Source: Candidatus Nanohaloarchaea archaeon (GTDB lineage Archaea; Nanohalarchaeota; Nanosalinia; Nanosalinales; Nanosalinaceae). From it: a stretch of DNA of 11,624 bases. The notes below the pieces were generated by a model, which worked only from the letters and a program-made list of their open reading frames with translations, had not been told where the DNA came from and ran no database searches. This document shows, piece by piece, positions 46-10,291 of the stretch. The first letter of the stretch is position 1, and the number at the start of each line of letters is the position of its first letter. Position numbers and translations under genes: made by a program. The stretch is from assembly GCA_046497485.1 (NCBI GenBank), contig JAWOFP010000026.1, forward strand, positions 1 to 11,624, given 5' to 3'.

Positions 46-2106
46 ATGATATATTACGGTTATAACGGTTTCAAAGGCCAGTCTGCTATTGAGTATTTGA
101 TGACGTATGGTTGGATGCTTCTTGTTGTTGCTATCGCTGGTGGTGCGGTTTTCAGTGTTGTCGGCGATCAAAATGTTGAAAGTGTGAATGGTTTTACCGG
201 TGATGATGTTCTGGTAGATAATTTTGGTTTGAACAATGATGGAGGGCTTGACATGGTTTTGAGGAATACTGCTTCTGAAACTGTAGAAGTAAACAGTGTT
301 AATGTGACTGATGGCGGCGATTATACTGAGTTCGTGGGTGAGCGGGAGGTTGATGTCGGTGATACGGATAATATTGAGTTGCCCTTTGTTTCTGAAACCG
401 AGGGCACTAATGATTTGGATGTTGAAGTCGATTATAGTGTTGGCGGGTTAGATAATTTACAGGCTTCTGGAACGATTACCGGCGGATTGCAAATTACGGA
501 AACCAGCACTGTTTCCGGAACAGTCTCCGCCAGTCCAGGATGGGAAAATGTAGAAGTAAGAATAAAAGATGGAGAAACAATCGAAGAAAGAGTTCATACG
601 GATGAAAACGGAGAATACTCAGCCAATATTGAATCAGGGACTTATGATTTTGAAGCAGCTGGAGTAGAAGCAACTAGCATTAATGCTGATGAAAGTATTC
701 AACTGGATTTCGATCTAGGCTCAGAAGAAGTAATTAAGGACGGAACAACTGAAACAACATTCAGCACAGTAACATTGAGTGACTGCGAAGCAGACGATCG
801 AGGACCATCCGATATGACATACGCAGAAACATCTGATGGCGAACTACAAATAGCAAGCTTAGATCAACTCCAATGTATGGAAGAAGGCCTGGGAGACGAC
901 TATGTATTAACACAGGATATCGACGCTTCAGGAACAAGCGAATGGAATGTATTACAATCAGGCAAGGAAATGACAGAAGAAGAAGATGATTACTTTGGAT
1001 TTGATAAAGGCGATCAAATCGAATTACTATATTCTATACAAGAAATTAAAAGTGTTGTAGATACAGAGACAGATGAAGACGTAGATGTCAAAATAGTAAG
1101 TAATGAAGAGGGTATTATTGAAATTGATACGGAATCTGAACCAAATGACATTGAAATTACATATACAATTGAAGAACATGTACGTGGATTTAAACCAATT
1201 GGTGAATATGATACAGAATTCACAGGTAGTTTCGATGGACAAGGATATGAAGTAGATACATTATATATTGATAGAGTTGAAGAGAATATTGGATTATTTG
1301 GTTTCACCGAAGGAAGTATCGTTAAAAATACTGGTTTAGTTAATAATGATATAACCGGTGCTAATAGTCGTGTAGGTGGGCTTGTTGGACGTAATGCTGG
1401 TACAGTGAGTGACTCGTATGCTACTGGAAGTGTAACTGGTTATGGTAGAGTAGGTGGGCTTGTTGGAAGTAACCGTCCAGATAGTGAAGTGAGTGACTCG
1501 TATGCTACTGGAAGTGTAACTGGTGATGGTAAAGAGGTAGGTGGGCTTGTTGGAGATAATCAGGAGAGTACAGTGAGTGACTCGTATGCTACTGGAAGTG
1601 TAACTGGTGATGATTATGTTGGTGGACTTGTTGGACGCAATTATGAGAGTAATGTGAGTGAATCGTATGCTACGGGTGATGTAAGTGGAAATGGTGAAGT
1701 TGGCGGTCTTATTGGATTTTCGCGGGGTGGACTAGTAACTGATGTTTACGCTACTGGTGATGTGAATGCTGAAGATCATGTCGGTGGACTCGTAGGCAAG
1801 ATTTCTTATGAGGCTGACTTAGATAATGGATTTTCTACAGGTGACGTAACTGGTACCACCGATGTTGGTGGGTTACTTGGTAGTAATGAATATCCGGATG
1901 GTATGGTGAGTGATTCGTATTGGGATGATGAGGCATCGACCGTTACGGAAGACGGTGAGGAAAAAGATAACTATTCTGTGGGTGGAACCGCCCTAACCAC
2001 CAGTGAGATGCAGGGAAGTAGTGCTGAATCAAATATGGATTTTGACTTCGAGAGTGTTTGGGAGGTAGTTGATAGTGATTATCCTAAACTTGTGAACCTC
2101 CCGTAG
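46..2106 (+). CDS. Class III (type IV pilin-like) signal peptide surface protein with a carboxypeptidase-regulatory-like beta-sandwich and C-terminal GLUG-repeat beta-helix; putative adhesin
   Basis: N-terminal KG|QSAIEYLMTYGWMLLVVAIAGGAVF (prepilin cleavage site plus hydrophobic helix); TVSGTV...TDENGEYS...GTYDF segment; YVLTQDIDAS, FTGSFDGQG and repeated VGGLVG-N...VSDSYATGSVTG units; very acidic. Confidence 0.85.
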   Translation: MIYYGYNGFKGQSAIEYLMTYGWMLLVVAIAGGAVFSVVGDQNVESVNGFTGDDVLVDNFGLNNDGGLDMVLRNTASETVEVNSVNVTDGGDYTEFVGEREVDVGDTDNIELPFVSETEGTNDLDVEVDYSVGGLDNLQASGTITGGLQITETSTVSGTVSASPGWENVEVRIKDGETIEERVHTDENGEYSANIESGTYDFEAAGVEATSINADESIQLDFDLGSEEVIKDGTTETTFSTVTLSDCEADDRGPSDMTYAETSDGELQIASLDQLQCMEEGLGDDYVLTQDIDASGTSEWNVLQSGKEMTEEEDDYFGFDKGDQIELLYSIQEIKSVVDTETDEDVDVKIVSNEEGIIEIDTESEPNDIEITYTIEEHVRGFKPIGEYDTEFTGSFDGQGYEVDTLYIDRVEENIGLFGFTEGSIVKNTGLVNNDITGANSRVGGLVGRNAGTVSDSYATGSVTGYGRVGGLVGSNRPDSEVSDSYATGSVTGDGKEVGGLVGDNQESTVSDSYATGSVTGDDYVGGLVGRNYESNVSESYATGDVSGNGEVGGLIGFSRGGLVTDVYATGDVNAEDHVGGLVGKISYEADLDNGFSTGDVTGTTDVGGLLGSNEYPDGMVSDSYWDDEASTVTEDGEEKDNYSVGGTALTTSEMQGSSAESNMDFDFESVWEVVDSDYPKLVNLP
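1372..1690 (+). repeat. Intragenic tandem GLUG-coding repeats, period about 78-87 bp
   Basis: Identical 36-mer GTGAGTGACTCGTATGCTACTGGAAGTGTAACTGGT at 1405, 1489, 1573; identical 18-mer GTAGGTGGGCTTGTTGGA at 1372, 1450, 1537; a fourth diverged copy follows. Confidence 0.95.
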
Positions 2107-2354
2107 TCCGAATTCTTGATTAGATATTATCGGGGTGGGAAACCTCTTCTGTTATATATTTTATACTGGTTGGGAGGAGAGAATTGAGTATTGTTTCTGG
2201 ATAATCACTTTTTTTGGGGGACGGTCTCATAGAGTTTTTCCCCGCCTCGCTTTGGTTCCTCGTTCTGAAATAGGTGTTTCTAATTCATATGACTAAACTG
2301 CCATCTAGAACAAAGGCTGTACCAATTCTATGGCTTAATCCGAATACCATTGAC

Positions 2355-2480
2355 GAAGCATGCTTCAAGGACGCGTCCTCGGTGTCAAAACAGGCACCCC
2401 GACGACGTACAGCGATTACAGCAATTTGAATGGCTCTTTACATAAGCCATTTAAAACTTCGCTGCGAAGTGATCTAGATC
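2355..2480. repeat. Cluster of six closely packed palindromes / inverted repeats
   Basis: GAAGCATGCTTC 2355-2366; AGGACGCGTCCT 2368-2379; GGTGTC..GGCACC 2381-2398; TTTGAATGGCT..AGCCATTTAAA 2425-2455; ACTTCGC-T-GCGAAGT 2456-2470; GATCTAGATC 2471-2480. Confidence 0.75.
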
Positions 2481-2496
2481 TGTATAGGAGGATTCG

Positions 2497-2595
2497 ATGA
2501 GTATGACGGTTGACGACGAAAACAAAGTGCAGGGCATCGTCCTTTTGACGGATGAGGCCTCCAAATTTCTAAACCCGAGAGAAGAGATCGCGTAA
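2497..2595 (+). CDS. Putative 32-aa small ORF or gene remnant (MSMTVDDENKVQGIVLLTDEASKFLNPREEIA)
   Basis: AGGAGG at 2486-2491, 5 nt before ATG; acidic; VDDENKVQGIV resembles the CBS-domain VVDxxGxLxGIV motif. Confidence 0.3.
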   Translation: MSMTVDDENKVQGIVLLTDEASKFLNPREEIA

Positions 2596-2724
2596 CATTT
2601 CGATTAGTTCGGGACTTTCACAGGCCTGAGAATCTCCCAGTGTAGGTAGTTCGGCGGTTTCGGAGTATCGGAATATATGTACTATGAGTTGTTATAACAG
2701 TTGACTAGTATACAGGGTATGTAG

Positions 2725-3054
2725 ATGCCTGATCCTGGACATGGTTTTGAACGAGCTTTTGGAATGGTAATCGAGGCAATAGTAGTTGCAGTTCTTTTCA
2801 GTGCTTTCGTTGAAGCGGGTTTGATTCCGAAGATCTACTTTACTCTCTTCAATCTCATTTCGATTGTAGGGCTGGTTCTCTTGATAGAGAAAGCGAAGTA
2901 CTGGGGCTTTGGCTATTTAGCTGGCTGGATACTGGGTCTCGTGTTTTCTCTTGGTACGCTTATTCAAACTGAGTTTATAGGACTGTTTGATCTTTTCCTG
3001 TATGGAGCTGTAGCAGCAGGAACCATCTATGTCAAGATCAAAGTCCGTATCTAA
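2725..3054 (+). CDS. Hypothetical integral membrane protein (about 4 TM helices)
   Basis: 109-aa ORF, four hydrophobic stretches, basic C-terminus. Confidence 0.75.
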   Translation: MPDPGHGFERAFGMVIEAIVVAVLFSAFVEAGLIPKIYFTLFNLISIVGLVLLIEKAKYWGFGYLAGWILGLVFSLGTLIQTEFIGLFDLFLYGAVAAGTIYVKIKVRI

Positions 3055-3173
3055 AATCCGGTTCAGAGAACTTATTTAAAAATCATAGACCAATCTTCAC
3101 TTGAAAAACCAAACGAAGGAAGGAGAGGCGAAAATCACGGTAAAGAAGAGTGTTGAACCGCTGATTTGTCGGT

Positions 3174-3194
3174 GGGTCCTGCCAAATAATTTTG
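3174..3194 (+). repeat. tRNA-3'-end-like direct repeat, copy A
   Basis: GGGTCCTGCCAAATAATTTTG; 15 nt identical to copy D, with a similar T-rich flank. Confidence 0.8.
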
Positions 3195-3337
3195 GGTTCA
3201 GTGTTACCTATTCTCTATTTTTAGCCCCTCTACATCAAAATCGGTTTTTTGTCCGGTCTTTATTAATTGCTTATCTCAATATGGGGGTGTGGAAACTGTC
3301 GGACAAAATTGTAAAGTTTACCTGAGAAAATTCTCTT

Positions 3338-3901
3338 ATGGAACTTAGAATAGCTAAAAAACAAGAACTGAAAGAATTAGTAGAATTTGACAGAAACTAT
3401 GCAGGCAGTCATGCAACTACAGAAGAATTTCAGGAGAGATTTGGCAAATGGCCTGAAACATTCATCATTACTACAGAGGACGGAGAAATCATCGGAGATG
3501 CAAAAGGTAAAATAGAAAGTGAGAGCTGTATGGGTCTTCAGTCAATAGCAGTAAAAGAAGGTTACAAAGGTCAGGGAATCGGAACTAAAATACTCAAATA
3601 TTTTGAAGATAAAGCCAAGAAATATGCAGTTAAGGTCACGATAGCATCAGCAGATAATGTAGAAGAATTCTACCAAAAGAACGGTTATGAACCCGTCCAG
3701 ATAATGCTACAAGTAAATAAGGATGAATTACCTGAGAATTACCAGCAGGAAGAAGAAATAGTTGATGAGAAAGATGTGGACCAAGATACAAAATTTCTAT
3801 ATGCTGACTTCGATGAATACAGTAAAGAACTGCGAGACAGGTTGAAGGACAAGTTCAACGCTTTTGAAGTAAATACAATCTATGAGAAGAATATTAGTTA
3901 A
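3338..3901 (+). CDS. GNAT family N-acetyltransferase
   Basis: Motif A (IAVKEGYKGQGIGTKIL) and motif B (NVEEFYQKNGYE), plus a C-terminal acidic extension. Confidence 0.9.
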   Translation: MELRIAKKQELKELVEFDRNYAGSHATTEEFQERFGKWPETFIITTEDGEIIGDAKGKIESESCMGLQSIAVKEGYKGQGIGTKILKYFEDKAKKYAVKVTIASADNVEEFYQKNGYEPVQIMLQVNKDELPENYQQEEEIVDEKDVDQDTKFLYADFDEYSKELRDRLKDKFNAFEVNTIYEKNIS

Positions 3902-3903
3902 TT

Positions 3904-3918
3904 ATTCGGGTCCTGCCA
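3904..3918 (+). repeat. tRNA-3'-end-like direct repeat, copy B
   Basis: ATTCGGGTCCTGCCA, 14/15 identical to copy D; fills most of the 20-bp gap between the convergent GNAT and vapC stops. Confidence 0.8.
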
Positions 3919-3921
3919 TTC

Positions 3922-4293
3922 TCAAATTGTTTGAACTTTTAAATTCTGTTTTTTTTTAAAATCATGGTCTTTTGTGATTATTTCTACATTGTTAACTAGG
4001 GAGATGCCGGCTATCATCAGATCGAAGTCGCTTATTTCTGCGTACTTTCCTTTTAGTTCTGCTACTTTTTTGGCTGCCTCGTTACCTGCTTCTAAATGTT
4101 CAAGTTCATCTAGCAGCGATTCTACTTCTTTTTCTCCTTCTTTAGTTCTTCTGGCTAGTTTTGTTCCTCGATAAAGTTCGCATTGGACAGGAAAGCAGGT
4201 GCAAAAAGTCGCGTTATCTTCTGCCACTATTTCCTCAATCTTTTCATCTGCACGGAGAAGAGCTATTACAGCAGAGGTATCTAAAAGTTTCAA
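3922..4293 (-). CDS. vapC: VapC PIN-domain toxin
   Basis: LLDTSAVI, ELYRG, DFDLMIAGISL and ITKDHDF PIN motifs; TTG start 6 nt after the antitoxin stop. Confidence 0.92.
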   Translation of the reverse strand: MKLLDTSAVIALLRADEKIEEIVAEDNATFCTCFPVQCELYRGTKLARRTKEGEKEVESLLDELEHLEAGNEAAKKVAELKGKYAEISDFDLMIAGISLVNNVEIITKDHDFKKKQNLKVQTI

Positions 4294-4299
4294 ATTATT

Positions 4300-4509
4300 T
4301 CATTCCCTCATTTCAAAATCGTCTCTCTCATTTTTCAACTCTTCTTCTACTTCGCCGATTTCAGGGAAGGAGCCGCTAAACTTCTGCAATTCTTGCTTTC
4401 GATCCTCTGAGATTCTCTCCACTACGTCGGAGAAACTTTCTTTCTCCCTCTTTAATTTTTTTAATTTCTCATAAGCAGTTTCTCTAAGTGAAACTGTTTT
4501 AGTTGCCAT
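4300..4509 (-). CDS. vapB: VapB antitoxin (archaeal DUF217/VAPB_antitox type)
   Basis: MATKTVSLRETAYEKLKKLKREKESFSDVVERI matches the KTI-L-..AYE-L...K...ESFSDVI pattern; directly upstream of the PIN gene. Confidence 0.92.
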   Translation of the reverse strand: MATKTVSLRETAYEKLKKLKREKESFSDVVERISEDRKQELQKFSGSFPEIGEVEEELKNERDDFEMRE

Positions 4510-4540
4510 CCACAGATCTGTGTATTGAATATTTTTATTT
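4508..4540 (-). promoter_or_regulatory. vapBC promoter with palindromic operator
   Basis: Perfect 12-bp palindrome CACAGATCTGTG (4511-4522) next to the vapB ATG; AT-rich TATA-like stretch about 25 nt upstream on the minus strand. Confidence 0.6.
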
Positions 4541-4580
4541 CTTTCTCTTAGTTCAGAATTAATATAATTTTCTACTATTT

Positions 4581-4603
4581 CGGTTCAAATCTGGGTCATG
4601 TCA
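4581..4603 (+). repeat. tRNA-3'-end-like direct repeat, copy C (degenerate, retains T-loop)
   Basis: CGGTTCAAATCTGGGTCATGTCA; GGTTCAAATC is a canonical T-loop; three substitutions versus CCGGGTCCTGCCA. Confidence 0.65.
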
Positions 4604-4688
4604 ATTGCATTTAAGTTGATTTTATAGAATTGCCGGAGCTGCCGCGTGATCCCTCAGTGATTTAATTCTCTTTGGTTATAACCTTGTC

Positions 4689-5279
4689 ATGAAGCTTTTC
4701 CTTTGTAGGCATGGAGAGACTGAGCATAATGACAACGGCATAGTGCAGGGCCAGATGGACACTAAAATTAATGGAAAAGGGAAGCAACAGGCCAAAAAGC
4801 TCAGAGATAGACTTGCTGAAGAAAATATAGATAAAGTATACTCCAGTTCTATGACTCGTGCTATAGAGACTGCAGAAATAGTCGCTGAACCACATGATAT
4901 TGAAATAGAGGAAACTGAGGAGCTAAAAGAAGTTGCAAGAGCTAAATTTGAGGGAGAACGATCTGAAGACCTGATAGAAGAAATAACCAGATCAGAAACA
5001 GAAGACTACTTGTGGAAACCAGAAGGGGGCGAAAGTTTAGAGGAACTGAAAGAAAGAGGAGCCGACTTCTTCAACACTATAAAAGAAGAACACGAAGGAG
5101 AACAAGTAGTTGCCATTTCTCATGGAGGAACAATAAGCAGCACCTTATTGGGAATATTAGAACATTCCTCCAAAAACAGTTACAGAATAAACCAGGAAAA
5201 CTGCAGTATCAATAAATTAACATGGAATCCTGACAGAGGATGGTCAATTCATTCAGTAAATGATAGCTCACATCTATAA
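4689..5279 (+). CDS. Histidine phosphatase (phosphoglycerate mutase-like) family protein
   Basis: LFLCRHGETEHN, YSSSMTRAIETA, PEGGES and ISHGG motifs. Confidence 0.93.
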   Translation: MKLFLCRHGETEHNDNGIVQGQMDTKINGKGKQQAKKLRDRLAEENIDKVYSSSMTRAIETAEIVAEPHDIEIEETEELKEVARAKFEGERSEDLIEEITRSETEDYLWKPEGGESLEELKERGADFFNTIKEEHEGEQVVAISHGGTISSTLLGILEHSSKNSYRINQENCSINKLTWNPDRGWSIHSVNDSSHL

Positions 5280-5308
5280 TTGAATCCGGGTCCTGCCAAA
5301 TATTTTTG
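5280..5308 (+). repeat. tRNA-3'-end-like direct repeat, copy D (right boundary of the accessory region)
   Basis: TTGAATCCGGGTCCTGCCAAATATTTTTG begins immediately after the phosphatase TAA. Confidence 0.8.
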
Positions 5309-5382
5309 TTCGACCAATTTTTCTGTTGTAGTTATCCGGCAAAGGAAAAAAATAAAAATTATTGGGAAAAGGGTTTAAACCG

Positions 5383-5607
5383 TCATTCCAGGCCTTCTGT
5401 CGGACTGTCTCCTGTTTCTGAGTCGGATGTGTCTCCTGATTCTCCTTCAGGGTCTGATTCTTCTCCTGTATCAGGACTGTCTTGCATTCCTTCTTCAGTA
5501 TCTGGATTGTCCAGTTCTTCTGAAGGTTGTGCTCCGTCTCCTCCAAGACATCCTGAAGTCACTAAAACAACGGCTATAAGGCCTAGGAGTACTACTTTTG
5601 AATCCAT
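5383..5607 (-). CDS. Small putative lipoprotein with acidic disordered tail
   Basis: Signal peptide with lipobox-like VTSGC; AGGTGA SD upstream of ATG; D/E/S/G/P/T-rich tail. Confidence 0.8.
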   Translation of the reverse strand: MDSKVVLLGLIAVVLVTSGCLGGDGAQPSEELDNPDTEEGMQDSPDTGEESDPEGESGDTSDSETGDSPTEGLE

Positions 5608-5712
5608 TTAATCACCTTTCTACTTGATCAGATAGTTTCCTAATATAAAAACCGTGATCCGAAATTAGGCCTTAAACAGACCCAAATCTACTGTACTTGA
5701 GAAATATCAGGG

Positions 5713-7053
5713 CTATAACTGGTTGAAAGCTCTTCCAACTACTTCGCTTAAGGCAGGATGAATGTGAATCGCGTCCTTAATTTCACTGATTCCTCCGCTT
5801 GAACGCATTACTGGAAGGACTTCATGAATTAGTGTTGAGGCCTCAGGCCCGATAATATGGACTCCTAGAATCTCATCTTCTTTAGCCAGGACTTTGACAA
5901 ATCCGTCTTCTTCTTTCATGGCTTGGCCCATACCTGTTTTTTCGTAATCGTAAACTGACTTTCTGTATTCTGTGTTTTCTTCCTCTAGTTCCTGCTCGGT
6001 CTTCCCGACTCCTGCGATCTGAGGACTGGTAAACACTGCATGAGGCATAGCTGTAAAGTCTGCATCTACATCCATTCCGTTCATATTTTTGTAGACGATT
6101 GAGGCCTCGTAATTGGCAGAGTGTTTGAACATGAAGTTGTCGGCGATATCTCCAAGAGTGTAAACTCCTTCAACTGAGGTTCTCATTCCTTTGTCTGTTT
6201 CAATAAATCCTCTCTCAGTCAAGTCAATAGAAGTATTCTCCTCTAAATTGAGGTTATCTGTGTTTGGAACTCGTCCAGTAGCCATCAAGATTTCATCGGC
6301 TCTAACAGTCTCTCCATTATTCAAGTGAGCGATTTTCTCTCCATTTTCCTCCTCGATTTTTTCTGCTGAGGCCTCTAGAACTACATTGTATCTTTCTTTA
6401 GCTAATTCTGTGAAAGTCTCAGACACATCTCTGTCTTCTCTTTTAAGCAGTTTTTCGCCCCTCTCAACTATAGTTACATCGACCCCCATCTCGCCGTAGA
6501 AAAATGCCATCTCTGCAGCGATATAGCCTCCGCCAACAATCACAAGCGAATCAGGCTTCTCATCTAGTTCCAGTGCATCCTTGCTTGTCAGATAATCTAC
6601 ATCTTCAACTCCATCAACTGGAGGGATGAAAGGCCTTGAACCTGCTGAAATCAGGATTTTATCGGCAGTCAGTTCCTCGCCATCAACTTCAATTACTTTG
6701 TCATCTTTGAATGAGGCCTCTGATCTGTAAAGATCATAGTTTTCCGCATTTTCTACACCAGATTTGATTGCTTTAGCATCTTCAGCCACATTCTCATTTA
6801 CTTCTTCAATCATTTCTTCAAAATCAATTTCATCAATGGACGCTTTGATCCCGAATTTTTCTGATTCTCTGATCTCTGAGGCGACTTCTGCTCTGTGAAT
6901 CAACATTTTTGACGGTATACATCCTCTGTTCAGGCAGGTCCCGCCTAAAGGCCCTGGTTCGATTAAAGCTACTTTATTTCCTTTAGAATGCATGGCTGAT
7001 GCGACATCGAGGCCTGATCCTGCTCCAATTACAATTAAATCGTATTCTTTCAT
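5713..7053 (-). CDS. Class I pyridine nucleotide-disulfide oxidoreductase (dihydrolipoamide dehydrogenase / mycothione reductase-like)
   Basis: IGAGSG FAD motif, GGTCLNRGCIPSK redox pair, VGGGYIAAE dinucleotide motif, ATGRVPN, C-terminal HPALSE dyad. ATG at 7053 (MKEYDL) preferred over GTG at 7065. Confidence 0.92.
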   Translation of the reverse strand: MKEYDLIVIGAGSGLDVASAMHSKGNKVALIEPGPLGGTCLNRGCIPSKMLIHRAEVASEIRESEKFGIKASIDEIDFEEMIEEVNENVAEDAKAIKSGVENAENYDLYRSEASFKDDKVIEVDGEELTADKILISAGSRPFIPPVDGVEDVDYLTSKDALELDEKPDSLVIVGGGYIAAEMAFFYGEMGVDVTIVERGEKLLKREDRDVSETFTELAKERYNVVLEASAEKIEEENGEKIAHLNNGETVRADEILMATGRVPNTDNLNLEENTSIDLTERGFIETDKGMRTSVEGVYTLGDIADNFMFKHSANYEASIVYKNMNGMDVDADFTAMPHAVFTSPQIAGVGKTEQELEEENTEYRKSVYDYEKTGMGQAMKEEDGFVKVLAKEDEILGVHIIGPEASTLIHEVLPVMRSSGGISEIKDAIHIHPALSEVVGRAFNQL

Positions 7054-7112
7054 TCTTTTGCTCACTTATAGTATAGAATTAGTTGCGGCTGTTTATGATA
7101 TTGGGCTTTCCT

Positions 7113-7655
7113 CTAGGTAAACTCTTCAGCTATCTTCCTGAAGTTTTGGTTCCAAATCTCGATTCTGGATTCTGAAGATGATTCAGCAAATGTTTTATCG
7201 GAATCCTCAAGCATCAGGACTCGATCCCAGTTTCTCTCATCTCCTCTGATTTCGTCGGATATTTTGATCGGTACTTTGAACTGATATTCCTTAATCTCGC
7301 CGTTTGGAAGGCCTAGAACTGTTCCTACTTCAAAATATCCTGTTCTCTTCTTTCCATTAATGAGCTCCAGAAGTTTTTCTGCAGGAATTTCCTGGTCAAA
7401 ATAGCTTATGTAAGGTCCTGGAAATCCGGGAACTGCGTCCAGATACAGGCTGTGGTCTTCCCTAATTACAGGTTCGTCGATATCTTCAATTATCTGTTCT
7501 ACAGTGTGCCTAGCTATTTCCATACTGTTTGAGGCCTGAATTTCATTATAGTTTTTGTCCAGCTGCTTAATTTCTATATTTGTTTTCTTGAATGCTTTTT
7601 TCGCTGAACTCAATTTGTCGGAATTACTGGTTATCAAGTAGATTGTATCTGTCAT
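7113..7655 (-). CDS. Ham1/RdgB family non-canonical purine NTP pyrophosphatase
   Basis: ITSNSDK, EIQA, EDHSLYLDAVPGFPGPY motifs; the usual C-terminal SHR motif is diverged. Confidence 0.85.
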   Translation of the reverse strand: MTDTIYLITSNSDKLSSAKKAFKKTNIEIKQLDKNYNEIQASNSMEIARHTVEQIIEDIDEPVIREDHSLYLDAVPGFPGPYISYFDQEIPAEKLLELINGKKRTGYFEVGTVLGLPNGEIKEYQFKVPIKISDEIRGDERNWDRVLMLEDSDKTFAESSSESRIEIWNQNFRKIAEEFT

Positions 7656-7682
7656 AGAGAAAAAGAAATTAGGAAATGCGGT

Positions 7683-7766
7683 TTATTCGTCGTCTTCGTG
7701 GTCGTGGTCTTCATCTCCTGTCAGATCTACTCCGCAAGTCTTGCAGACTTTTTCTTCATCGCTCAT
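7683..7766 (-). CDS. Unannotated 27-aa CxxCG/HxH putative metal-binding microprotein (MSDEEKVCKTCGVDLTGDEDHDHEDDE)
   Basis: ATG 1 nt after the thioredoxin stop; GAGGTGA SD 9 nt upstream; fills the gap in a co-oriented gene run; acidic composition. Confidence 0.75.
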   Translation of the reverse strand: MSDEEKVCKTCGVDLTGDEDHDHEDDE

Positions 7767-7767
7767 T

Positions 7768-8043
7768 TTAGTTTGTCACCTCTTCATCGTTGGCCCAGGC
7801 CTTCAAGGTTTCATAATCTGTTCCTCCACAGATCCATTCCTCTGTCTCTGTGTTGTAGAAGAACGGTACTCCACCACATTTGTCGTCTCCATCTACATCA
7901 TAATAGACTTCTTGGTTGTCTTCATCGTTCCAGACTTCTAGTTTCTGGACATTGAATCCTTCTTCCTCTTCGAGTTTCTCTACTTTAGGCCTCATTGATT
8001 CGCAGTGAGTGCATCCATCTCCGTAAAATTCGTATAAAGTCAT
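7768..8043 (-). CDS. Thioredoxin/glutaredoxin-like protein
   Basis: EFYGDGCTHC active site and cis-Pro motif GVPFF; ATG at 8043 (MTLYEFY) more plausible than the 8097 start. Confidence 0.88.
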   Translation of the reverse strand: MTLYEFYGDGCTHCESMRPKVEKLEEEEGFNVQKLEVWNDEDNQEVYYDVDGDDKCGGVPFFYNTETEEWICGGTDYETLKAWANDEEVTN

Positions 8044-8106
8044 TCTTGAACCACAAAGATTAATTGTGAGGCCTTCTTTTTCAATCTTCCATAACAACTA
8101 TGTTAC

Positions 8107-8913
8107 ATGCTGGAGTTCATATGGAAATATTTGATAGGACCGATAGTCGCGGAAGCAATAGGAGAATCAGCAATCTGGAGAGGAGTCGAGTCAGTAGCAG
8201 GTTACAATATCTATAATACCTTTGCTTGGATGATTTTAGGCCTATCAACAGTAATTCTAATCAAAAAATTGTTTGAAAAGTATGAAATTGATTTTACTCC
8301 GGAGACAGCTTTCAATTTAATACCTGTGATAATTTTGGCAGGAGTCTTGAGAGCGGTTCAGGACGCAGTAAACCTTCCCTTACTTGTAGAGATTCTGCTG
8401 ATTACTCCGGTAATCTATATTTGGATAGCATTATTTACAATTAGTTTACTTGCTTTGAACCAGTTTAGAGGCCTTAAATTCAGATATATCAACTCGGTAA
8501 TAATACTGGCGGTATTAGGTCTTCTATTCTGGATTCAGGCCCCTTTAATTCCTGTAGCAGCTGTAACTATTGGAGCAGGTGTGATTGGAGGCCTTTACTA
8601 CTTCTTAACTGAAGAAACTAGTTATGGTTCGAGTCCTCTAACCTTTATGGTTATGAGCCAGTTCTTTGAAGCCTTTTCATCAATGTATGGGCTTTCTCAA
8701 GGATATAATGCTCGACAGCTATTGACGTCCACAGCTGTAGAGATTATGGGTCCTCTTGGCTTCCTTCTTGTGAAATTATTTGTGCTGGGCGCTGCCTTGA
8801 AGATTTATTTTGACTTGGAGGAGATATGGCGGTCTATACTGCTTGTGGCGCTCTACTCGATCGGTTTCGCGACAGGTATCAGAGTGATCTTGAGAGCTGC
8901 CCTAGGCGTCTGA
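8107..8913 (+). CDS. DUF63 family archaeal integral membrane protein
   Basis: GYNIYNT motif, AGVLRAVQDA, LLITPVIY, C-terminal GFATGIRVILRAALGV; multiple TM helices. Confidence 0.8.
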   Translation: MLEFIWKYLIGPIVAEAIGESAIWRGVESVAGYNIYNTFAWMILGLSTVILIKKLFEKYEIDFTPETAFNLIPVIILAGVLRAVQDAVNLPLLVEILLITPVIYIWIALFTISLLALNQFRGLKFRYINSVIILAVLGLLFWIQAPLIPVAAVTIGAGVIGGLYYFLTEETSYGSSPLTFMVMSQFFEAFSSMYGLSQGYNARQLLTSTAVEIMGPLGFLLVKLFVLGAALKIYFDLEEIWRSILLVALYSIGFATGIRVILRAALGV

Positions 8914-8924
8914 AAAATACAAGA

Positions 8925-8934
8925 TTATTTATGC
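8925..8934 (+). promoter_or_regulatory. Possible TATA box for a leaderless transcript
   Basis: TTTATG at 8928-8933, 24-29 nt upstream of ATG 8957; no SD visible. Confidence 0.4.
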
Positions 8935-8956
8935 AAAGCTCTCTTAATTAGTTTGT

Positions 8957-10291
8957 ATGAGGAAGGCCTTGCTGGTTTCGACCGTTTTTCTATTAATGAT
9001 TGGAACTGTTTCAGCTTTTGAAGTATCTGTAAATAGTTTGGAGCAGACTGCTACGACAGATCAGCCGGCCGTATTCGAGATTGAGGTCGAAAATACCGGT
9101 AGTACTGAGTCAGATTACCGTTTGAATATGCAGGACTACCACAGAAGCCAGTGGTACAGTTACGATGAAAGAATCAATATTCAACCAGGCGAGACACGAG
9201 CATTTGCATTAGAAGTCAGTCCTGGAAACCAGGCGGTTCAGGACCGTTACAACGCGGATTTCTCAGTTAGAGAGTCTGCAACTGATCAAGTTTTCCAAGG
9301 ATCGCTTAACTACCGTGTTACTCGTGACAGAGAACTGAATTTAGAATCCTTCTCAACGGATATATCTGAAGTAAAGCCAGGTGAAGAAGTTGAGGCCTCA
9401 GCCACAGTTAGAAATGTAGGCCCTTCAACGCTTCAAGACCCAGAGATAACATTTAATGGGTTAAATCAGTCAAAAGTCTCAGATCTTGGTCCGATAACAG
9501 GCGGAGGCACACGCTCAGTCACAGAAACTTTTGAAATTAAACAGTTCGAGTCTCCAGGAGTCAAAGAAATAATTTTAGAGGTAGAAGACAGGACCTATAC
9601 TGAGGAAGTTGAAGTAGAAGAAATTGAGAATATCTCTGAGAAAGTTGAAACAGATAACAGAGTTTTTGTAGTGAATAAAGAATACAGGTTCGAGAATGAT
9701 GGTAATACTCAAAGAAATTATACTTACGAAGTTAAAGTTCCAGATTATTTAGCTCCTGTAACTTATACTGAAGACGCGGAAAGATTCAGTTCTGAAAACG
9801 GTACAGGCTACAGATGGACAATGAATTTAGAGCCTGGAGAAACCGAAACAATTGAGACTAGGACAGATTACTGGATACCGATTACAGGCCTCGCAGTATT
9901 ATTCGTAAGCTTTATCGTGCTCAGAAAGATTACCTCAAGCGTCTCAGTCGTGAAAAAAGTAGAGGAAAGAGGCGACAAAGTAATAATTACTTTAGAGGTT
10001 GAAAATTCAAGTTCCAAGACTTATGACGATGTGCTGCTTGAAGATTATGTCCCAAACATTGCATCAGTCAGTTCAAACTTTGACATGGCCACACCTGAAA
10101 TTGTGAACGAAGAAGAAGGCACAAAACTCAAATGGTGGATCACGGATCTAGGCCCAGGAGATCAGAGAATCCTCAAATACACATTAAGGCCTAAAGTAGA
10201 GGTAGAGGGCGGGGTCACATTAGATCCTGCAGAACTGAAAGATGGTGACGAGACCTTGAGTCTGACCGATCAAGTGAAGGCTCGGTTCTAG
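8957..10291 (+). CDS. Secreted single-pass membrane protein with tandem Ig-like (CARDB/NEW3-like) domains and a C-terminal DUF11-like domain
   Basis: Sec signal peptide (VSA|FE); V-N-G and I/L-PGE motifs; TM helix YWIPITGLAVLFVSFIVLRK; post-TM VVKK...LEDYVP...WWITDLGPGD domain. Confidence 0.8.
   Translation: MRKALLVSTVFLLMIGTVSAFEVSVNSLEQTATTDQPAVFEIEVENTGSTESDYRLNMQDYHRSQWYSYDERINIQPGETRAFALEVSPGNQAVQDRYNADFSVRESATDQVFQGSLNYRVTRDRELNLESFSTDISEVKPGEEVEASATVRNVGPSTLQDPEITFNGLNQSKVSDLGPITGGGTRSVTETFEIKQFESPGVKEIILEVEDRTYTEEVEVEEIENISEKVETDNRVFVVNKEYRFENDGNTQRNYTYEVKVPDYLAPVTYTEDAERFSSENGTGYRWTMNLEPGETETIETRTDYWIPITGLAVLFVSFIVLRKITSSVSVVKKVEERGDKVIITLEVENSSSKTYDDVLLEDYVPNIASVSSNFDMATPEIVNEEEGTKLKWWITDLGPGDQRILKYTLRPKVEVEGGVTLDPAELKDGDETLSLTDQVKARF

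Follow-up and report, generated by a model that had tools for sequence, protein, structure and literature searches.

Tyrosine integrases are established as enzymes that target the 3' ends of tRNA genes and recombine over a 14-bp core (PMC4383910, PMC5861418), as described for the SNJ2 integrase (PMC5861418), and the junction of T-stem and acceptor is one known crossover subsite in tRNA genes (PMC4383910). Among its 3,919 islands the Islander survey lists four tandems of at least three, with integrase-less islands filtered out (PMC4383910), and the smallest integrated element reported for thaumarchaea is 2.6 kb (PMC6563490). Units without an integrase are described from streptococci, in which cis-mobilizable elements (CIMEs) accreted at the 3' ends of genes keep their attachment (att) sites, lack integrase and transfer genes, stand in tandem with an integrase element and carry cargo genes (PMC7563491, PMC5704250), and from Dehalococcoides, in which tandem islands at ssrA are separated by a short repeat of the tDNA 3' end and 15 of 31 lack the integration module (PMC3146451). 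Here we analyse a window of 11,624 nucleotides, the whole of contig C64 of a nanohaloarchaeal genome (G000; 967,558 bp, 66 contigs), in which three integrase-less units of about 0.7 kb lie in direct orientation, each terminated by a copy of the tRNA-Pro(TGG) 3' end. The reading that we consider probable is that such units are att-flanked cassettes accreted at tRNA-Pro and likely moved in trans by the integrases of visiting elements. The phenomenon itself is real and spread across the lineage. Other genomes, contigs, loci and metagenome runs are cited by working handles where they must be told apart.

The repeat GGGTCCTGCCA occurs exactly at 3174, 3908 and 5288 of the window, all on the plus strand, with a degenerate plus-strand copy (two mismatches) at 4593, giving core-to-core spacings of 734, 685 and 695 bp, in full agreement with a preliminary description of this DNA. 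With up to two mismatches allowed, six matches were found in the window in comparison to a mean of 1.27 in shuffled sequence, and none of 200 shuffles reached six. ARAGORN detected one tRNA-Pro in G000 (TGG anticodon, contig C39, c[669,743]), which ends in the motif merged from the copies and so confirmed the proposal that the motif is a tRNA 3' end, one that comparison showed to differ from that of the tRNA-Tyr in the window. Rather than being scattered genome-wide, the exact 11-mer has only four copies in the genome, three in the window and one at the 3' end of tRNA-Pro(TGG), with 0.07 stray copies expected under a fourth-order Markov model. In a control with other tRNAs, tRNA-Tyr had three stray 11-mers (0.35 expected) that lay on three contigs, had no T-loop and were taken as chance.

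Identity to the tRNA-Pro end covers the last 11 nt in core 1 (3174..3184), the last 12 nt in core 2 (3907..3918, beginning after 5 nt past the GNAT stop codon), 19 of 22 nt including T-loop, T-stem, acceptor strand and discriminator in core 3 (4582..4603) and the last 16 nt in core 4 (5283..5298), all on the plus strand. The repeat stops at the tRNA discriminator, and the letters downstream of it differ. Copying from a mature tRNA is disfavoured, because the added CCA was absent from every core inspected. Core 4 is followed by conserved chromosomal genes (oxidoreductase, Ham1, thioredoxin, DUF63). In several relatives a tRNA-Pro(CGG) of identical 3' end is also present, in some cases a few kb downstream; only the TGG species was detected in G000. 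A separate observation concerns gene-less duplications, 60–135 bp long, of the 3' ends of tRNA-Leu, -Ser, -Pro and -Lys (G000 C57 ~6347 and C48 ~13293), with similar ones in L008, L009, L026, L029, L100 and L147, several of them rich in short hairpins; by analogy these may be likened to microCIMEs.

Each interval between cores holds exactly one unit, and the assignments made earlier, GNAT (+), vapBC (-) and histidine phosphatase (+), were upheld with all proteins above the Pfam cut-off. Unit 1 (3185..3918, plus strand, 734 bp) encodes a GNAT acetyltransferase of 187 aa (3338..3901, +). Unit 2 (3919..4603, minus strand, 685 bp) encodes the PIN-domain toxin VapC of 123 aa (3922..4293, -; PF01850) and the antitoxin VapB of 69 aa (4300..4509, -; PF02697), and unit 3 (4604..5298, plus strand, 695 bp) a histidine phosphatase (branch 1) of 196 aa (4689..5279, +; PF00300). 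The vapBC unit has counterparts between cores of 693 bp in G001 (70% DNA identity), where homology reaches the right core, and of about 703 bp in G021 (76%), a one-contig genome in which it is the last of several tandem units behind the tRNA; in G055 a broken vapBC lies 0.7 kb behind a degenerate site. The phosphatase gene shares 78% DNA identity with a G010 gene located directly behind a degenerate core. The window GNAT appears to be the N-terminal half of a fusion, because its homologues in G008 and G016 run on into a NUDIX domain. Homology to them ends about 17 nt before core 2, the fused sequence at this boundary loosely resembles a T-arm, and in G064 a NUDIX 87% identical to that of G008 forms a separate unit of 633 bp. 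This single case fits half-gene capture at a look-alike site and also a deletion between microhomologies. No inverted pair at unit ends was present among the 25 longest of 275 inverted repeats listed, no PF00589 match was obtained on the contig, and an Rfam search of 2100–5500 returned nothing near gathering score.

Our survey of the class found the exact 12-mer core in 41 of 70 genomes. DNA was taken around most core and arm matches (the arm is described below), so that the sample of units is biased to genomes with sites. A fixed rule gave 54 intervals, of which inspection by eye removed six: two lay upstream of a tRNA, two had a complete tRNA-Pro(CGG) at their end, one was doubtful and one lacked an open reading frame (ORF). 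This left 48 site-bounded units in 23 genomes or contigs with the three of the window counted. Unit size ranged from 493 to 4,010 bp with a median of 832 bp; 35 of the 48 measured at most 1,100 bp and 33 had a single ORF. The last gene was on the minus strand in 32 of 48, orientation being mixed, and plus-strand unit genes retain their own upstream AT-rich stretch. A tblastn search with four integrases gave no match in any of the 54 intervals first called. Among the 103 cargo proteins scanned were NIF3, NUDIX, CYTH, methyltransferase, HEPN/nucleotidyltransferase, ParE/RHH and GNAT proteins and many unknowns. Homologous units with matching ends recur across genera in the genome pairs G046/G067 (76%), G047/G067 and G001/G000; alignment of the 159-aa unit of G046/G067 includes both arms, and that of the G047/G067 unit runs from 19 bp before to 2 bp after the ends.

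Single contigs of G005 and G067 carry units and an integrase element in tandem, and synteny suggests the same for G000. In G067 a 563-bp cassette lies between tRNA-Pro and the integrase element. Scanning genome contigs for the core together with the start of the arm returned 17 stretches, comprising 11 labelled Nanohaloarchaea or Nanohalobium, three labelled uncultured archaeon, one with a true arm from a bacterial bin and two that were due to chance. The bacterial bin, titled Magasanikbacteria (L072), has core, arm and two units on its contig and is likely mis-binned. A metagenome scan for the pattern gave 10 matches, two with a real arm. The viral collection contained no match to two core patterns and no relative of the G067 integrase; 35 loose arm-pattern matches there were attributed to chance, as all had negative arm scores.

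It is important to note that unit 3 opens with a conserved 40-bp arm (4604..4643, +) that was not listed in the preliminary description and that is made up of a 20-nt spacer starting ATTGCAT and, after it, a degenerate core copy. This arm scored 41 bits and is the sole arm match in G000, in comparison to a maximum of 8 bits in the shuffled genome; we infer that it represents the left end of a cassette (P' arm). Many cores are followed by the arm, and a second, degenerate core lies 41 bp on. The arm profile was built from 27 of 95 junctions, and scores on those junctions are therefore circular. Arm scores are bimodal, with 35–62 bits in 13 of 45 distinct tRNA-Pro flanks and values below 0 in the remainder, and at those 13 flanks the arm opens mostly unrelated cargo. 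Of 49 other genomes in the family, 23 contain a 22-nt arm pattern (up to three mismatches), as against none of 20 outside it, and a reversed control gave no match; the match of G000 itself in this search was weak and lay on a different contig from the window. In sequence the arm forms an imperfect palindrome, in which 74% of cells pair versus 24–51% when slid. A role as RNA or single-stranded DNA structure was set aside, as covariation was no higher than in shuffles (228/500). The four window junctions (five folds) gave z values of -0.28 to +1.27 with no attC-like fold.

Site anatomy varied with the strand of the last gene. In 10 of 16 units with a plus-strand last gene the stop codon lies 9–30 bp before the site end (17 and 19 bp in the window) and the right site is mostly a bare core of 12–16 nt, and units with a minus-strand last gene usually end in a degenerate core, a spacer and a full T-arm copy. 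Arm-bearing sites also occur away from tRNA-Pro, at a locus of G014 that recurs in G069 and behind the ribonucleotide reductase gene in G011, G046 and G067. Such distant arm sites and single-gene units were noted at L138 (G014) 6490–9260, L151, L144, L030, L061 and L146, one site being inside a ribosomal-protein gene cluster.

Rearrangement of the window units was visible in metagenome contigs. Of the 22 runs listed, 20 contain some of the stretch, in most cases 20–38% of its words, which is approximately one unit. Contigs of four runs from four studies (X1, X2, X6, X7) were placed on the window at 88% likeness; X1 may be the source sample of the window, and the contigs inform on presence, not absence. 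One X1 joint (3172 to 3907, short side 30 nt) skips exactly the 734-bp GNAT unit at a depth of 28 versus 6 for the GNAT contig, other X1 depths being 39–43 for vapBC, 20 for the phosphatase and 107 for the flank. In X7 one joint (4604 to 3205) leads from the vapBC core through 19 nt into the GNAT unit (side 50 nt), which represents either the reverse of the window order or a two-unit circle, and another (3888 to 5286) leads from GNAT to core 4 and the flank (side 21 nt). In run X2 one contig, of 1.9 kb, places vapBC among other neighbours and a second one covers the phosphatase from 4581 to 5302, and in X6 a different arm variant comes after the vapBC core. Short sides of the joints ranged from 21 to 76 nt. 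Two joints with unidentified sequence in between (X7, 4597 to 5725; X2, 3249 to 3907) were not used as adjacencies. Since unit order has changed in these contigs, movement in cis only is disfavoured. The loss, gain and reordering of units with breakpoints at the motif that had been anticipated were thus encountered both in relatives and in metagenome contigs.

The prediction of a parent tRNA left of the window is borne out by synteny. In the congeners G003 and G004 the oxidoreductase-thioredoxin-DUF63 block found after core 4 is preceded by tRNA-Pro at distances of 1.6 and 2.2 kb, the gene upstream of tRNA-Pro is common to G003 and C39, and because of this arrangement C39 likely joins the left side of C64 across a gap. 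A contig of X2 has tRNA-Pro 3' letters immediately before 3174. The ORF directly behind tRNA-Pro on C39 runs off the contig end; over its first 95 aa, identity is 63–72% with the G067 integrase at tRNA-Pro and 67% with the counterpart in G031, and the rest, judged Cdc6-like by eye, has matches at two other places in the genome. This in-frame join of an integrase N-terminus to a Cdc6-like piece (C39 1–563, minus strand) is either a deletion product or an assembly join. From this ORF and the probable contig order, core 1 is likely the right end (attR) of a larger broken integrase element that starts at the C39 tRNA, with the three units beyond it. To the left of core 1, window 46–2106 (+) encodes a surface protein of 686 aa that has a pilin-like N-terminus and contains five GLUG repeats; its DNA has matches on seven other G000 contigs, and the protein is probably cargo of the larger element. 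Positions 2290–2640 contain broken reading frames that are single copy in the assembly and reach a summed depth of up to 644 with many loose ends in metagenome runs; three pieces had no Pfam match, and the region is probably the relic of a multi-copy insertion sequence.

With regard to the tyrosine recombinase that the preliminary description had called for, integrases targeting tRNA-Pro exist in the lineage and a broken one stands behind the C39 tRNA, but none is intact at the tRNA-Pro of G000. In a tree of 28 integrases the tRNA-Pro copy of G067 grouped with those of G001, G035 and G056 (100/99), and the copies of C39 and G031, short and outside the tree, matched this group by BLAST. The best candidate for the enzyme is the clade of the broken C39 integrase. 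Hairpin modules beside the G067 and G044 integrase copies recur, by eye, in cassette junctions. Five one-contig genomes have one or two PF00589 matches above cut-off each, beside tRNA-Pro only in G005. Other candidates were considered and dismissed. No conserved resident XerA-like enzyme emerged from these genomes and the tree. In G047 (L140 3088–4302) an integrase gene of the tRNA-Gly type is immediately followed by a core-like site and arm, with two units after them; its product was rejected as a dedicated array enzyme, as the G009 copy, 98% identical, lies behind a tRNA-Gly end and has no arm. A lone 334-aa reverse transcriptase on G000 C56 (L127 361–1365) had no visible link to the array. 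Cas1, Y1 transposase and reverse transcriptase were all checked and yielded no support for a role in it.

Under the favoured reading, the 3' end of tRNA-Pro(TGG) would be an insertion site whose far end is contained in the window, and at this site three 0.7-kb integrase-less units in direct orientation, each closed by the last 11–22 bases of the tRNA, would have been inserted one after another and could be removed by a tyrosine integrase supplied in trans from visiting mobile elements. Each unit would excise as a small circle whose attP consists of a variable left side, a 12–14-nt core at the T-stem/acceptor junction and the arm; the circle would re-enter at the tRNA or at any core, pushing older units outward. 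The GNAT/NUDIX boundary may illustrate how new units form: the enzyme, or else a deletion, would connect a core with a look-alike site located next to or within a gene. Direct observation covers the identity of the repeat, the single-gene units, the return of such units in other genera with the ends matching, and their loss or reordering at cores in contigs, together with the 40-bp left arm held in common and the tyrosine integrases that target tRNA-Pro in the lineage. Action in trans is proposed on the ground that no resident enzyme was found. A further-reaching interpretation, which we regard as possible and put forward tentatively, is a lineage-wide system of gene capture and shuffling that parallels integrons but is built of other parts, its recombinase borrowed or not yet found. 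The tRNA-Pro end would then be the entry site, the 40-bp arm with its second core-like site would mark cassettes, genes would be captured at look-alike sites by stop codons or domain borders, with genes such as GNAT-NUDIX being split and fused, and free-standing cores could seed new arrays elsewhere in the chromosome.

Several results weigh against mobile cassettes served in trans. The two intact tyrosine integrases of G000 are at tRNA-Cys and tRNA-Thr, and its tRNA-Pro lacks one; the one-contig genomes G021, G010, G024 and G014 contain units with no PF00589 match beside tRNA-Pro; and the tree of 28 integrases revealed no conserved resident recombinase. Because the tRNA-Pro integrase elements carry arms other than the 40-bp arm, enzyme and arm have no direct link. 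Furthermore, this arm is present in only one of the three window units, and in one-contig G014 four arm-bearing sites within 2.8 kb are far from tRNA-Pro. No right-hand core follows the phosphatase gene of G010, and no core lies within 1.5 kb of the GNAT-NUDIX gene of G016 or of vapBC in G013. A one-unit circle was absent from the contigs of the four runs, and the joints themselves may stem from sister species and not from one population, given the 88% likeness and the short sides.

An alternative account, which is rather unlikely in our judgement and is the most serious of the rivals, takes the units as eroded islands (CIME-like relics), in which larger integrase islands at tRNA-Pro shrank by deletion to the useful gene. 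Differences between genomes would then reflect repeat-mediated deletion and homologous strain exchange, and units would move only with an autonomous neighbour. This agrees with the broken integrase fused to a Cdc6-like piece and the probable insertion-sequence relic that flank the array, with units of 2–4 kb and a 20-kb integrase island at the same site and with a GNAT apparently cut from a GNAT-NUDIX fusion; CIMEs and integrase-less ssrA islands have been explained in this way (PMC7563491, PMC3146451) and repeat-mediated deletion is documented in Haloquadratum (PMC3119063). Deletion would not, however, produce the reversed order of X7, and erosion fits less well with homologous units that have the same ends in different genera, with the lack of an integrase remnant in any unit and with one arm that opens unrelated cargo. 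In addition, the G067 cassette is tRNA-proximal to the integrase element, whereas decayed elements of Streptococcus salivarius are always the farthest from the target (PMC7563491).

The mosaic sites of core, spacer, degenerate core and hairpins, the sites away from tRNA-Pro in G014, G069 and G067 and behind ribonucleotide reductase in three genomes, and a gene-less 133-bp hairpin unit in G010 that folds at z -4.9 could instead be ascribed to a small non-autonomous repeat (REP/BIME- or MITE-like) that was spread by its own transposase to gene ends, with genes between two copies moving as composite passengers. We judge this quite improbable: copies within an array are all direct and all carry the tRNA end, many right ends are bare cores of 12–14 nt, the window junctions do not fold, and G000 has a single arm and no Y1 transposase. 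It is highly improbable that a Cas1-type integrase (casposase) inserted gene-sized DNA at tRNA-Pro while duplicating its target, like a CRISPR array whose spacers are of gene size. The Aciduliprofundum boonei enzyme does target the T-loop region of tRNA-Pro with a 15-bp duplication and possible tandem arrays (PMC5137440), and bare cores here are 11–16 nt, but in A. boonei just 5 bp of the duplication fall within the tRNA and the remainder extends downstream (PMC5137440), whereas the window repeat is wholly inside the tRNA. Moreover, Cas1 was found in three of 70 genomes, and the G000 copy is preceded by helicase- and Cas4-like ORFs in the manner of a CRISPR operon (read by eye); the end of G000 C45 (L174) holds the start of a cas3-cas4-cas1-like operon. 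Lastly, the three-unit order could be an assembly mosaic of strains with one or two units each, since no listed contig spans the stretch and X1 depth differs approximately 17-fold between GNAT and flank. We give this hardly any credence, as the one-contig genome G021 has several tandem units behind its tRNA and a mosaic would itself require units that are exchangeable at cores.

Nanohaloarchaeal genomes measure approximately 1 Mb, and such units escape island finders that depend on an integrase (PMC4383910). If the favoured reading is true, much accessory gene exchange in nanohaloarchaea would take place via gene-sized cassettes at one tRNA, involving toxin-antitoxin pairs, acetyltransferases, NUDIX, NIF3 and methyltransferases, and tiny genomes would own an integron-like way to swap accessory genes. 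The core and 40-bp arm may also provide a small defined substrate for studying how archaeal integrase-less elements borrow integrases. Cargo genes were seen here inside and outside cassettes, which bears on how gene cassettes form, an open question for integrons. Our literature search, which covered subscription journals thinly, returned no account of such arrays in nanohaloarchaea, although supplements of genome papers may list the repeats.

The comparison to integrons made in the preliminary description holds as an analogy only. Like integrons, including archaeal ones, the locus is a mostly single-ORF array with stop codons near the site and variable order, and its GNAT, toxin-antitoxin, NUDIX and methyltransferase cargo is integron-like (bioRxiv 10.1101/2022.02.06.479319). 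Unlike integrons, it has no adjacent IntI (five integrases scored at most 41 bits on TIGR02249, with a cut-off of 265) and no attC-like fold, its site is a tRNA end and both gene orientations are common. With tRNA-targeted integrase islands it shares a restored tRNA, a displaced direct 3' fragment at the far end and re-use of the site (PMC4383910, PMC5861418, bioRxiv 10.1101/2020.12.28.424599, PMC6563490); tycheposon targets include tRNA-Pro(TGG), as here (bioRxiv 10.1101/2020.12.28.424599), and the cores can be likened to the 14-bp core of SNJ2-type elements (PMC5861418). Islander, SNJ2-type, tycheposon and thaumarchaeal elements are, however, defined by an integrase on board, which the units here lack. 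Casposon features, namely a solo Cas1 with PolB, a duplication mostly downstream of the tRNA and terminal inverted repeats, were likewise not found, the last among the 25 longest of the 275 inverted repeats listed. Dehalococcoides ssrA islands differ in their tmRNA target, in a serine recombinase within a six-gene module and in being multi-gene and many kb long (PMC3146451). The units resemble CIMEs in that they keep att ends with no recombination or transfer genes and stand in tandem with an integrase element at the same target. Classical CIMEs measure 1.2–13 kb and microCIMEs are 130–220 bp with no gene (PMC7563491, PMC5704250), whereas most units here carry intact genes within 1.1 kb; unlike CIMEs, they are archaeal, can be tRNA-proximal and share an arm across unrelated cargo. 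In summary, this locus is closest to CIME accretion and to the Dehalococcoides ssrA arrays, from which it is set apart as a smaller, archaeal and gene-tight form with a family-wide arm.

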